Positions 4,193-62,304 are shown, counted from the stretch's first letter. The stretch: DNA of 64,000 nucleotides from a virus (IMGVR_UViG_3300020478_000004:44526-108525); one strand, 5' to 3'. Program-made: numbers and translations. The notes: generated by a model from the sequence alone, not told the origin.

Positions 4193-4225
4193 AATGATAA
4201 ATACAGCTAATAGGGAGATATTATA

Positions 4226-4858
4226 ATGAGTATATCAACATTATCAAAACTTACAGTACCTTTAGATTCAAGTGCATCAGCCTCGAATCAAGGGCTGTTA
4301 ATGCCAAAACTCCAGTATCGCTTTAGGGTGACATTGGAAAATTTTGGTAGATCAACACCAACAACTGAATTAACAAAACAAGTTGTTGATGTTACAAGGC
4401 CTAACGTGTCCTTTGAACAAATTACACTTGACGTATACAACTCACGTGTGTTCTTAGCAGGAAAACATACTTGGGAACCAATCACACTTAACTTACGTGA
4501 GGATGTTTCTAATAACGTACAAAAATTAGTTGGTGAGCAACTACAAAAACAATTTGATTTCTTTGAACAATCATCAGCGGCATCAGGTAGCGATTACAAA
4601 TTCGTAACTAGAATTGAAATTTTAGACGGTGGTAATGGTACAAATGCGGCGGCGATTCTTGAAACATTTGAACTTTATGGTTGTTACTGTGAAAGTGCAA
4701 ACTACAATACATTAGCATATAGTACAAACGATCCAGTAACTATTGCATTATCTATTAGATACGATAACGCAATACAAACACCACAAGGTACAGGTATTGG
4801 TACAGCTATTGGTAGAACAGTTAATACTGCGGCTACTGGTGGTGGATCAGCAACTTAA
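4226..4858 (+). CDS. Tail tube protein (gp19-like)
   Basis: Directly follows sheath; PKLQYRFRV, GKHTWEPITL, IRYDNA motifs. Confidence 0.9.
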   Translation: MSISTLSKLTVPLDSSASASNQGLLMPKLQYRFRVTLENFGRSTPTTELTKQVVDVTRPNVSFEQITLDVYNSRVFLAGKHTWEPITLNLREDVSNNVQKLVGEQLQKQFDFFEQSSAASGSDYKFVTRIEILDGGNGTNAAAILETFELYGCYCESANYNTLAYSTNDPVTIALSIRYDNAIQTPQGTGIGTAIGRTVNTAATGGGSAT

Positions 4859-4886
4859 TAAAAATAAATTATAATATTTCCGAGTC

Positions 4887-4920
4887 AAAGGGGGTCTTTT
4901 TAGGCCCCTTTTTTCTTTTT
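4887..4920 (+). terminator. Intrinsic terminator
   Basis: AAAGGGGGTC-TTTTTA-GGCCCCTTT followed by T run. Confidence 0.75.
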
Positions 4921-4983
4921 GTATAACTCTTCAATAATACATTCATGTTAAATACCCACTTATTTTTATAGATAAATAATAGT

Positions 4984-43221: not shown

Positions 43222-43566
43222 TTGAAACTCTGTTCGATCATAATAATGTCGATGTTACTCCTTCAAGGGTGTGCGTTGATTCCCTGGCAAATATCCGTAG
43301 CTCTACAAACCGCTGATGTTATATCCGCATCATCTTCAAATAAGACTTTAGTTGAACATGGAATGAGTAGTATAACAGGACAGGATTGTCAATGGTATAG
43401 ATTACTAGATGGTGCAGAAATATGTATGACTCAAGAAGAAGAAATAGCATACCTTAAAGAACATAAGTGCAAAGTTCATGCTTGGAACATATTAGCTATT
43501 CCATACTGTAAAGATTTATTACTACCTATTCAAAATCCTATGTTACCTACGCCTACTCTAGAATAA
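43222..43566 (+). CDS. Putative lipoprotein
   Basis: LLLQGC lipobox; SSITGQDC; TAAATA upstream. Confidence 0.6.
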   Translation: MKLCSIIIMSMLLLQGCALIPWQISVALQTADVISASSSNKTLVEHGMSSITGQDCQWYRLLDGAEICMTQEEEIAYLKEHKCKVHAWNILAIPYCKDLLLPIQNPMLPTPTLE

Positions 43567-43647
43567 GAAAGACGAACACGACACTATTCGGACATGGCCG
43601 CAAAATCATGTTCAAACCATTAAGACACCGCTTTTTATATCATTTGA

Positions 43648-43653
43648 TAAATA
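43648..43653 (+). promoter_or_regulatory. Late-type TAAATA promoter for the leader/aaRS-like/tRNA unit
   Basis: GATAAATACT 10 nt before ATG 43664, the same geometry as at 4984, 9552 and 11153. Confidence 0.6.
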
Positions 43654-43663
43654 CTACTTTAGT

Positions 43664-43936
43664 ATGCCGAGAGAACTCTTAAATACTAAAAACCACAAAA
43701 CACCAACACATACCATCTCCAATACACAATATCAAGACGTAGAATTAGTCAAACTTATGACTGAAGCATTAACGAATAAGAACAAGTATACTGTTCGTGT
43801 AGAAGGTTGGAATATAGAGTACAAACGGCATTGGACCTCTAGCATTAACAGTATCACTAATTGGGACAATTTAAACTTTAATTACAACCAAAAAGCTGAT
43901 ACATTTGTCTTTCAACATAGGAGCAACGGACAATGA
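43664..43936 (+). CDS. Asn-rich 90-aa ORF (candidate leader peptide or partner subunit)
   Basis: 13 Asn in 90 aa, 6 of them in NSITNWDNLNFNYN; ATGA overlap with the next gene. Confidence 0.6.
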   Translation: MPRELLNTKNHKTPTHTISNTQYQDVELVKLMTEALTNKNKYTVRVEGWNIEYKRHWTSSINSITNWDNLNFNYNQKADTFVFQHRSNGQ

Positions 43937-44847
43937 CCCAACTAATTAACCCACAAGCCTTTACCGAAACTGTCGGCCGTTTACGGTCGTTTTTTTTGGA
44001 CAAGGGATTTTACGAAGTACACACTCAAAACAGATTAAGCATACTAGCCGCTTGTGAAGACCCGTTTAACGTAGCAACATACAATTACGCAGACCAAGTA
44101 TGGCCTTTACCCCAAACAGGCCAGATGTGGCTTGAACACGAATTATTAAGTAGCCCCTCTTCGAAGGGGTTTTTTTGTGTCTCCACATCCTATAGGCAGG
44201 AACCAAATGCAATACCAGGAAGACATGATATCATCTTTCCAATGTTTGAATTTGAGATGCCTGGTGATATAGATGACCTTAAGAAGATGGAGTATGAATT
44301 ATGTGAACACTTGGGCTTTAAAAAGCCTACTGAAAAAACTTATGCTGAATGGCAAAAGCATTACGGTCATGCTGAAGACTATGAAATGACTGCGGAAGAA
44401 GAAACCAAGATGCACCAAGAGTTTGGTACAACCATGATAACAGACTTTCCTGAAATGACATCACCTTTTTGGAACATGAGTAGAAATGATGATGGCAAAA
44501 CTGCAAAGAAGATAGATGTTATACTAGGTGGTATGGAAACAATAGGAAGTGCGGAACGTTCATGCGATGTAGAAATGATGCGTGATACATTCCATAGCAT
44601 TACAGACGGAGAGTACAGTAAGCTACTTTATAAACTGTTCAGTCAGGAACGTGTTGAAGCAGAGCTAGAAAAGTTTCTAGAGTTTGACTTCTTTCCGAGA
44701 GTTGGTGGCGGAATAGGATTAACTCGTTTGTTAAGAGCAGTTGAAGATTATAAAAGTAAAAAAGTAAAAACTGATGATGACCGTGAAATTTTATATAATA
44801 AACGCCGAGAGATGAATAGGCAAAGCGTACACGGAATACTTCAATAA
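43933..44847 (+). CDS. Class IIb (Asn/Asp) aminoacyl-tRNA synthetase paralog, catalytic domain only
   Basis: Motif 1 RSFFLDKGFYEVHT at residue ~18, motif 2 SYRQE...RH..FPMFEFE, ETIGSAER, motif 3 GGGIGLTRL; no N-terminal OB anticodon-binding domain. Confidence 0.9.
   Translation: MTQLINPQAFTETVGRLRSFFLDKGFYEVHTQNRLSILAACEDPFNVATYNYADQVWPLPQTGQMWLEHELLSSPSSKGFFCVSTSYRQEPNAIPGRHDIIFPMFEFEMPGDIDDLKKMEYELCEHLGFKKPTEKTYAEWQKHYGHAEDYEMTAEEETKMHQEFGTTMITDFPEMTSPFWNMSRNDDGKTAKKIDVILGGMETIGSAERSCDVEMMRDTFHSITDGEYSKLLYKLFSQERVEAELEKFLEFDFFPRVGGGIGLTRLLRAVEDYKSKKVKTDDDREILYNKRREMNRQSVHGILQ
43974..43997 (+). terminator. Intragenic terminator-like hairpin 1
   Basis: CGGCCG-TTTA-CGGTCG followed by T8. Confidence 0.5.
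44152..44176 (+). terminator. Intragenic terminator-like hairpin 2
   Basis: AGCCCCT-CTTCGA-AGGGGTT followed by T run (7 T in total). Confidence 0.55.
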
Positions 44848-44853
44848 GGCTTT

Positions 44854-44940
44854 TCCGGGGTGGTGGAAACGGTAGACACGATAGCCTGTTTAGCTATTGC
44901 TTGGGAGAGCGTGAAGGTTCGAATCCTTCCCCCGGAGCCA
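44854..44940 (+). tRNA. tRNA-Asn(GUU) with long variable arm (type II body), encoded CCA
   Basis: Acceptor TCCGGGG/CCCCGGA, G73, CCA; D arm GTG-GAAACGGTAGA-CAC; anticodon stem ATAGC/GCTAT with loop CT-GTT-TA; V arm GCTT-GGGA-GAGC; T arm GAAGG-TTCGAAT-CCTTC. Confidence 0.92.
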
Positions 44941-45097
44941 CTGGTCTTGTAAGATGATCTAGTGTGATTGTTTGATGTAGAGGGATCATAGTAGTATCTC
45001 CCTCTGAATTAATATTTTTAGGCTTTGCTTGATATTTAAGTTTTTTAGCCAACTTCTTTTGTTGTCTCATTATATGTCTATCAGAATGTTTAGCCAT
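44894..45097 (-). CDS. Small basic protein whose 3' end runs antisense into the tRNA
   Basis: Overlaps the stop of the upstream - gene; the last ~15 codons are the tRNA complement. Confidence 0.45.
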   Translation of the reverse strand: MAKHSDRHIMRQQKKLAKKLKYQAKPKNINSEGDTTMIPLHQTITLDHLTRPVAPGEGFEPSRSPKQ

Positions 45098-45797
45098 CAC
45101 TTGTCTCTATATAAGCCCATACCTTTTTAAGTAATTTTTTTATTACAGGATGGTTAGTATCAAAATCAAATGCCGCAAAATATCCAAATAAGTTAGGTGA
45201 TAATAATTTTTCTTTGTCTCTATATTGTGCAGTTTTTCCTGCCATACGTAATAAAGTAAGAGCAGTTTCTTTATCTGTTTTACGTACTAATTCACTAGCA
45301 ATATTTTTAGCATACGCTTCTATTTCATCGTCATTACCTAAGTATTCTCTAGTTCGTCTTATTTTATCAGATAATCCTTTTTTAGGTTTAAACTCACGTT
45401 GCTTTTTAAACCCTCTACCTCGATATTGGCTTTGATGAATTAACTCGTGTTCTAATACATCAATGATTCTATTCTTAATATTTTCAACACCTTCAGGACT
45501 AAAAGCAATTGTTTTATCTTCTTTAGAAAATATTAATTCAATTTCAAAATGTTCAAAGCCTTCTTGGTCATCAATAGGATCATATGAAGCATTCATATTC
45601 ATATCTCCTACTTCTACATTTTTAGAACGTAGAACATTTACTTCGTCAACTCCAATAGGTTTGGTATCAATTTCTAATTTTTTAGCAATATCTTTAAGGG
45701 GGATTTCTTCACCTGATGCTATAAATGTAAGGAACGGAGCAAGAGACTTTTCAATCTCTTTACGACTTGCAGGTTTTGTAAACTCCATTATTAACAT
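45090..45797 (-). CDS. Putative zinc metallopeptidase-like protein
   Basis: HELIH (HExxH) followed by YL...DEIEAYA. Confidence 0.65.
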   Translation of the reverse strand: MLIMEFTKPASRKEIEKSLAPFLTFIASGEEIPLKDIAKKLEIDTKPIGVDEVNVLRSKNVEVGDMNMNASYDPIDDQEGFEHFEIELIFSKEDKTIAFSPEGVENIKNRIIDVLEHELIHQSQYRGRGFKKQREFKPKKGLSDKIRRTREYLGNDDEIEAYAKNIASELVRKTDKETALTLLRMAGKTAQYRDKEKLLSPNLFGYFAAFDFDTNHPVIKKLLKKVWAYIETSDG

Positions 45798-62280: not shown

Positions 62281-62304
62281 AAGTGTTGCAAAAATGCAAC
62301 ACTT
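62281..62304. repeat. Perfect inverted repeat (terminator or operator)
   Basis: AAGTGTTGCA-AAAA-TGCAACACTT. Confidence 0.7.

Follow-up and report, generated by a model that had tools for sequence, protein, structure and literature searches.

Two hairpin and U-tract elements lie within the coding sequence of a cyanophage synthetase-like gene

The DNA considered here is a 64,000-nucleotide (nt) stretch from a T4-like cyanophage (IMGVR_UViG_3300020478_000004:44526-108525), hereafter the window, in which a gene for a paralog of class II aminoacyl-tRNA synthetases (aaRS) is followed by a tRNA-like gene with the anticodon GUU (tRNA(GUU)). Within the coding sequence (CDS) of the aaRS-like gene we found two short hairpins, each adjoining a U tract, and we conclude with high confidence, from comparison with related phages, that both are functional RNA elements under selection. 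As to what they do, we lean toward the view that the hairpins are built-in intragenic intrinsic terminators, which would attenuate transcription into the aaRS-like gene and tRNA(GUU).

The stems of hairpin 1 and hairpin 2 start 42 nt and 220 nt, respectively, downstream of the start codon (coordinates of all features are given in Table 1), and both elements have, as judged from their predicted folds, the two-part architecture of intrinsic terminators. A terminator scan and folding bore out the two terminator-like hairpins with U tracts that an earlier reading of this DNA, made from the sequence alone and here called the sequence-only reading, had placed early in the CDS. Hairpin 1 (CGGCCG-UUUA-CGGUCG; 5 of 6 base pairs (bp) GC) has a folding energy of -8.2 kcal/mol (z -3.4), and none of 200 shuffled sequences folded equally well. 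Hairpin 2 has a folding energy of -9.5 kcal/mol, and the first two U residues of its tract also form the last two pairs of its stem. Both hairpins lie within the range described for intrinsic terminators (about 5-14 bp, loop of 3-8 nt, G+C-rich), as do the U8 and U7 tracts (~7-8 nt, within 0-2 nt of the stem). When the same peptides were recoded with synonymous codons, 0 of 200 recodings matched either hairpin of the window. Further, on both strands of the 108.5-kb contig, hairpins 1 and 2 are the sole intragenic sites that combine a perfect hairpin with a run of at least seven T, and the T8 run of hairpin 1 is one of two runs of at least eight T on the + strand of this contig.

Pairing and U tracts are conserved among related cyanophages

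Homologous loci were collected from IMG/VR using three queries (the window, P-SSM2, and P-SSM7 proteins), and the 213 usable CDSs were reduced to 165 distinct cyanophage sequences with 61.5-100% amino acid (aa) identity. The element is carried by the cultured phages P-SSM2 (hairpin 1 alone) and P-SSM7 (hairpin 1 and a form of hairpin 2). Hairpin 1 was present in 99% of the 165 relatives, in at least six stem versions (UGGCCU/AGGUCA, UGACCU/AGGUCA, the register-shifted UGACCG/CGGUCA, GGAGCG/CGCUCC, GGGGCG/CGCUCC, and CGGCCG/CGGUCG), and in every version, the shifted register included, the 3' arm abuts the U run. Several of the switches between stems require two substitutions, and the stem of the window, CGGCCG/CGGUCG, is two compensated pairs apart from the commonest one, UGGCCU/AGGUCA. 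The encoded residues change as well: at codon 16 the window has Arg where most relatives have Leu, and within the 5' arm codons for Gly, Asp, Glu, and Thr replace one another. Hairpin 2 was found in about 78% of the relatives (131 of 165 in a count of stems), in versions that include AGCCCC/GGGGUU, AAGCCC/GGGCUU, AACCCUUC/GAAGGGUU, AAUCCUUC/GAAGGAUU, AACCCUG/CAGGGUU, and AAGCCAG/CUGGCUU, and has decayed in a P-SSM2-like subclade. Elsewhere in the CDS, no terminator-like position recurs among the relatives.

Covariation was scored in a gap-free alignment of 150 sequences (alignment A1). Paired cells amounted to 85.6% compared with 74.7% in shuffles (0 of 500), and the covariation score was 0.275 compared with 0.119 in shuffles (0 of 500) and 0.05-0.105 when the register was slid; 7 of the 14 pairs vary on both sides. 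Tree-based counts of pair changes are upper bounds, given a tree from 528 nt and likely recombination. We note that, in the same alignment, pairs 44-55 and 221-238 switch between G·U and A-U, which indicates selection on the sense-strand RNA and not on DNA or antisense RNA. The covariation check suggested by the sequence-only reading came out positively, with pairing kept via compensatory changes, and the null model of synonymous recoding was rejected: for hairpin 1 the mean energy was -6.6 kcal/mol compared with -1.4 kcal/mol after recoding (p ≤ 0.05 in 99% of sequences), and for hairpin 2 it was -8.5 compared with -3.1 kcal/mol (p ≤ 0.05 in 78%). Twelve control windows of the same CDS showed no excess folding under this null.

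The U tracts are constrained together with the stems. The U8 tract is invariant, every one of the 165 relatives having TTT at both Phe20 and Phe21, and Leu22 is encoded by TTG or TTA, never by CTN; the nearby Phe26 is TTT in 102 and TTC in 62. The stem of hairpin 2 is present in 131 sequences, all of which have a run of at least five T, and missing in 34, of which 26 have a broken run. When stem and U run of hairpin 2 were compared as independent contrasts, 6-7 went in the same direction and 0 in the opposite one (p about 0.016). Overall, conservation, covariation, the rejected recoding null, selection on the U tracts, and the joint loss of stem and U run all argue for both elements being functional RNA signals.

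The upstream open reading frame resembles a small phage protein more than an Asn-sensing leader

The sequence-only reading had proposed an attenuator that senses Asn-tRNA: the progress of a ribosome on Asn codons of the open reading frame (ORF) upstream of the aaRS-like gene would decide whether AACGGACA, just before the start codon, pairs with the 5' arm of hairpin 1, and thus whether transcription reads through to the synthetase-like gene and the tRNA. Its description of the ORF was accurate, with 13 Asn in 90 codons (7 AAT, 6 AAC), six of them within 14 codons (codons 62-75), and an ATGA overlap with the aaRS-like gene. The ORF also tops the 123 ORFs of the contig in Asn (14.4% vs 5.9%) and holds the sole 14-residue window with at least six Asn among 31,690 windows. 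Yet its richness is that of a modest outlier, since a binomial P of 2.3e-3 corresponds to an expectation of 0.28 over 123 ORFs. Also in keeping with a leader are the translational coupling implied by ATGA, an overlap kept in the 12 loci that have a homolog next to the aaRS-like gene, and the nature of the downstream genes, an Asp/Asn-type aaRS paralog and a tRNA(GUU).

Against this, most homologous loci keep the hairpins without the upstream ORF. Homologs of the ORF occurred at 3 of the first 85 loci, with 4.6-5.7% Asn, so that the expected conservation of an Asn-rich leader failed to appear; the sequence-only reading had named the lack of both leader and hairpins in relatives as what would count against it, and the leader is indeed mostly lacking but the hairpins are not. 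A wider search revealed a family of 83-147 aa, with six close metagenomic homologs and 22 IMG/VR loci (L216-L237); 12 of the 22 abut the aaRS-like gene via the same ATGA overlap, and 10 are located elsewhere. Relatives contain 2.4-9.9% Asn (11% by hand count in one close metagenomic homolog), and none of the 21 columns that are invariant in an alignment of the family (alignment A2) is Asn, most being aromatic, aliphatic, or acidic. Such a length and such conserved aromatic and hydrophobic positions suggest a folded protein and not a leader of 14-30 codons. Some members, among those compared (the window ORF, P0003-P0005, and L216-L237), have a hydrophobic N-terminal extension of ~57 aa.

The RNA pairing on which the leader model depends fared no better. 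AACGGACA is present at 43925-43932, but its pairing with hairpin 1 was missing from predicted minimum free energy (MFE) folds, even with the 3' arm withheld. Likewise, the 84 nt upstream of hairpin 1 showed no covariation with either arm, and the mean duplex energies of matched and mismatched loci were the same (-4.79 vs -4.79 and -5.71 vs -5.65). Codons 2-13 of the aaRS-like gene showed no synonymous constraint, and codons 1-13 contained no conserved Asn codon. Finally, the terminators would lie inside the structural gene and not before the first structural gene. With the leader mostly missing, its Asn codons unconserved, and no antiterminator, Asn-tRNA sensing is highly improbable. By its alignment, the upstream ORF is a small conserved phage protein and not a dedicated leader peptide, and the Asn-rich stretch is at best a lineage-specific detail.

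Two related signals were also considered and rejected. An Asn codon opens hairpin 2 (AAC/AAU), and this position is AGC, AAG, or CAG in many sequences. Pairing of a T-box kind, or with the 3' end of a tRNA (UGGC:GCCA), would involve the 5' arm of hairpin 1, which reads UGAC in about half of the relatives. An Rfam scan of 43500-45100 at E ≤ 1 returned the tRNA and a chance IS009 match only, and no T-box.

A candidate intragenic attenuator

We propose that the two elements, written into codons 14-22 and 74-82 with U tracts that are the invariant Phe-Phe of class II motifs 1 and 2, would form an attenuator inside the CDS of a mobile gene-plus-tRNA cassette with variable upstream context. Host RNA polymerase would pause or terminate prematurely at the hairpins, and a fraction of the transcripts would pass through the enzyme gene into tRNA(GUU). 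The expression of the cassette would thereby be fixed, low or conditional, at any insertion site. Because no RNA antiterminator is predicted or covaries, read-through probably depends on some other factor, and two modulators are plausible: as the first candidate, a ribosome close behind the polymerase could melt the hairpins, and, as the second, a phage-modified polymerase or late transcription complex could pass them. In the window, the ATGA coupling with the upstream ORF would bring ribosomes early and could raise read-through. Suppression by ribosomes of intrinsic terminators inside ORFs is established (PMC5021804). The anatomy is compatible with translation-coupled (pyrBI-like) attenuation, the hairpins lying in translated sequence and ATGA coupling occurring in 12 loci.

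Several points weigh against attenuation by termination. That transcription would terminate at the U tracts is deduced from their anatomy. Stems this short (6-8 bp, -6 to -10 kcal/mol) may terminate inefficiently. P-SSM2-like loci have their likely late promoter only ~20-30 nt upstream of the ATG, and hairpin 1 is at CDS nt 42-57; with a promoter so near, a ribosome would hardly reach hairpin 1 before the polymerase passes U8, unless the polymerase pauses there, and translation gating is uncertain. We identified no regulatory input for the hairpins, a hairpin followed by a homopolymer is also the design of a slippage stimulator, and the advantage of having terminators within a catalytic-core coding region is not explained. 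Metagenome contig ends, taken as a proxy for RNA 3' ends, showed no pile-up, which carries no weight either way, as the data are mostly DNA assemblies.

Among the alternatives, a post-transcriptional role, in which the hairpins would be a binding site for the aaRS-like protein (thrS-like autoregulation) or another protein, or a determinant of RNase cleavage or stability, is unlikely but deserves some weight. Autoregulation of synthetases through mRNA operators is an established theme, and here conserved, covarying stem-loops occur in the mRNA of an aaRS family member. However, the sequences of stem and loop vary freely, and only pairing and the abutting U run are kept, which better fits a signal to polymerase; an invariant U8 and the joint loss of stem and U run would be unexpected for an operator. 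Further, the hairpins lie outside the ribosome-binding region and, by eye and with no formal comparison, are unlike the arms of the adjacent tRNA. A variant of the attenuator, which we consider quite unlikely, is a self-contained checkpoint that would travel with the cassette and be gated by the anticodon-blind enzyme, by charged or uncharged tRNA(GUU), or by ribosome traffic; if true, it would be a tRNA-linked attenuator wholly in coding sequence, without leader RNA, T-box, or antiterminator.

Transcriptional slippage or ribosomal frameshifting on U8/U7, stimulated by the hairpins and giving truncated peptides or tuning the yield of full-length protein, is very unlikely. U UUU UUU is a slippery heptamer, and in a Roseiflexus IS element RNA polymerase slips more readily on a slippery homopolymer that directly follows a nascent-RNA hairpin, at a kind of site that has features in common with terminators (Penno et al. 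2015, recounted in PMC5009743). In addition, the record of P-SSM5 (L003, around 2455-2520) has T7 at the hairpin-1 run, as opposed to T8 in P-SSM2 (L001) and 213 other loci, and its annotation is frameshifted, the annotated CDS start having consequently moved downstream to a TTG; this may be a genuine indel in the slippery run or a mistake in sequencing the homopolymer. The P-SSM2 gene is listed at 741 bp (Sullivan et al. 2010, PMC3037559), which is the length of the truncated P-SSM5 annotation; the current P-SSM2 record has 804 bp. Against slippage, 213 of 214 loci have an intact zero frame, the shifted frames end ~1-20 codons from the U runs and encode nothing conserved, and no downstream frameshift stimulator was seen. 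That the hairpins and T runs simply mirror conserved residues and AT-rich codon usage is barely credible. The sequence-only reading had itself cautioned that the U tracts coincide with Phe codons, and they do, the T runs being the invariant Phe-Phe of the two motifs and TTT being the commoner Phe codon. They are nonetheless not a mere by-product of coding: synonymous recoding almost never yields such hairpins, compensatory double changes occur even at the cost, in some cases, of amino acid replacements, TTT is fixed at two codons compared with 62% at the neighboring Phe, and homologs from huge phages have Phe-Phe without a hairpin.

Comparison with known systems and significance

The elements share with intrinsic terminators a G+C-rich stem (6-8 bp), a loop of 4-8 nt, a U7-8 tract whose start coincides with the last stem pair, and the joint retention or loss of stem and U tract; in hairpin 2, the first U residues also pair with A residues that precede the stem. 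They differ in lying within a coding region, two in series, and not at the end of a transcription unit, and in having stems weaker than those of typical strong terminators. In pyrBI attenuation of Escherichia coli, the leader ORF that contains the terminator is translated, and a tightly coupled ribosome suppresses termination. The elements described here likewise have terminator-like hairpins in translated sequence, with ribosome proximity as a natural modulator and no RNA antiterminator required; unlike pyrBI, the translated sequence is the catalytic core of the enzyme itself and not a separate leader peptide, and no U-rich pause cluster was seen upstream of hairpin 1.

The likeness to the trp, his, leu, thr, and pheA leader attenuators is confined to this genome, in which an ORF enriched in one amino acid is followed by a terminator hairpin and a related tRNA downstream. 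It differs from them in that the ORF is a conserved 90-aa protein, mostly missing in relatives and with unconserved Asn codons, that alternative antiterminator or pause structures are absent, and that the terminators are inside the structural gene. T-box riboswitches, too, tie transcription attenuation to a gene of the aaRS family and a tRNA, whereas we found no Rfam match, specifier, T-box sequence, or conserved leader RNA at this locus, the elements are in the CDS, and UGGC of the hairpin 1 5' arm is unconserved, being UGAC in many relatives. With the slippage site of the Roseiflexus IS630-family element (Penno et al. 2015, recounted in PMC5009743), the elements share a GC-rich hairpin directly 5' of a homopolymer; here the unshifted genomic frame suffices for the full protein, and the shifted ones lead nowhere.

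Coding regions are normally purged of intrinsic terminators. What would be new here, and the balance of evidence tips slightly toward it, is the conservation of intrinsic terminators or attenuators inside a catalytic-core CDS, where they make use of the Phe-Phe codons in class II motifs 1 and 2. The elements persist in several hundred contigs of marine cyanophages, at the price of amino acid changes and with no synonymous freedom left at two Phe codons, and would be a clear natural case of overlapping codes for protein and transcription signal. They would also show a mobile gene-plus-tRNA cassette bringing its own expression control wherever it is inserted, and they give a handle on when the unusual pair of aaRS-like gene and tRNA(GUU) is expressed. 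Our literature search found no paper on this pair or its hairpins. Terminator predictions for these phages, in the comparative genomics study from which the gene cluster has its name, were confined to intergenic DNA (Sullivan et al. 2010, PMC3037559), and intragenic elements of this sort would therefore be missed. As P-SSM2 and P-SSM7 are in culture, the question is directly testable.

The synthetase-like gene, its tRNA, and their flanks

Table 1. Features of the aaRS-like locus, in window coordinates
Feature	Position	Strand	Basis
GATAAATA, T4-type late-promoter-like box, 10 nt before ATG of upstream ORF	43646..43653	+	read from sequence
Upstream ORF, 90 aa, 13 Asn, ATGA overlap with aaRS-like gene	43664..43936	+	ORF call, Asn count; homologs 66-72% identical
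Class II (Asp/Asn/Lys-type) aaRS catalytic-core paralog, 304 aa, without anticodon-binding domain	43933..44847	+	PF00152, phrog_29758
Hairpin 1 stem-loop, 6 bp, loop UUUA, codons 14-19	43974..43989	+	terminator scan, folding; compensatory changes in relatives
U8 tract adjoining hairpin 1	43990..43997	+	Phe20-Phe21 and first two bases of Leu22, class II motif 1
Hairpin 2 stem-loop, 7 bp, 6-nt loop, codons 74-80	44152..44171	+	terminator scan, folding; covaries in relatives
U7 tract of hairpin 2	44170..44176	+	Phe80-Phe81 and first base of Cys82, class II motif 2 (GFFCVSTSYRQE)
tRNA-like gene, 87 nt, anticodon GUU, long variable arm	44854..44940	+	ARAGORN; Rfam tRNA, 51 bits

The nearest named relatives of the aaRS-like gene are in the Prochlorococcus phages P-SSM2, P-SSM5, and P-SSM7 (64-66% aa identity), where the homologs carry the annotation "tRNA ligase." The protein matches only the class II Asp/Lys/Asn catalytic core (PF00152, E 6e-18, residues 13-271) and matches phrog_29758 with an E of 2e-128; NCBIfam matches to AspRS, AsnRS, and EpmA were weak and far under the equivalog cut-offs, and a search of solved structures gave just one weak match, to AspRS. 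The C terminus of the window's protein runs ~30 residues past that of most relatives (304 compared with 273-280 aa), this extension (44749-44847) being basic and acidic and reaching to 6 nt before the tRNA; the relatives L072, L077, and L085 are likewise long (296-301 aa).

The tRNA(GUU) gene starts 6 nt past the stop codon of the aaRS-like gene and is the last gene downstream of both hairpins. Among related loci with a downstream tRNA detected by ARAGORN, the tRNA lies 4-12 nt past the stop in 157 of 161; ARAGORN overlooks or misnames the tRNA(GUU)-like gene in many loci. The variable arm is very long and differs across loci (L001-L215), with gene lengths of ~83-103 nt. The anticodon loop reads CUGUUUA in the window, with U at position 37, and CUGUUAA in some of the relatives shown. 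L028 and L029 have no tRNA(GUU)-like gene within 125 nt past the stop. The huge-phage homologs L004 and L005 (44-50% identity) also lack an adjacent tRNA within this distance, keep Phe-Phe, and are missing both hairpins. The position of the cassette varies: P-SSM7 has it behind three tRNA genes in the interval from gp23 to gp3, and P-SSM2 has it in a different place.

The 5' flanks were surveyed over 110 nt before the ATG in L006-L215. Of 98 distinct P-SSM2/P-SSM7-like flanks, 63 have a (C/T)TAAATA box at -45 to -15 relative to the aaRS-like ATG; in these loci the late-promoter-like box is ~25-30 nt before the ATG, a strong canonical terminator often precedes it, and a conserved AGTTT(T)G follows it. 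In the window, GATAAATA is a putative late promoter by resemblance. The closer relatives of the window have instead (32 of 55) a variable hairpin with A2-5 and then T7-10 behind it, an element that ends 20-30 nt upstream of the ATG and may be a third signal of the kind found in the CDS. This flank hairpin covaries (GCTCAA/TTGAGC, GGTCAA/TTGACC, GCTAC/GTAGC, and others), and AAAGGAAAAAGAA lies between the T7-10 run and the ATG.

On the other side of the cassette, no consistent canonical terminator was found past the tRNA in the relatives. In the window, a strong stem-loop, AGAGGGAUC...UCUCCCUCU, is located past the tRNA at 44978-45006, between convergent genes and with no adjoining U run, and two hairpins in 44941-45010 jointly fold to -16 kcal/mol. 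The only other strong sites with a terminator-like hairpin and T run on the + strand of the window are at 62281-62304, outside any same-strand ORF, and at 4887-4912, which, on inspection of the ORF list, is inside the 4193-4983 gap between called ORFs; both look like ordinary terminators at the ends of transcription units.

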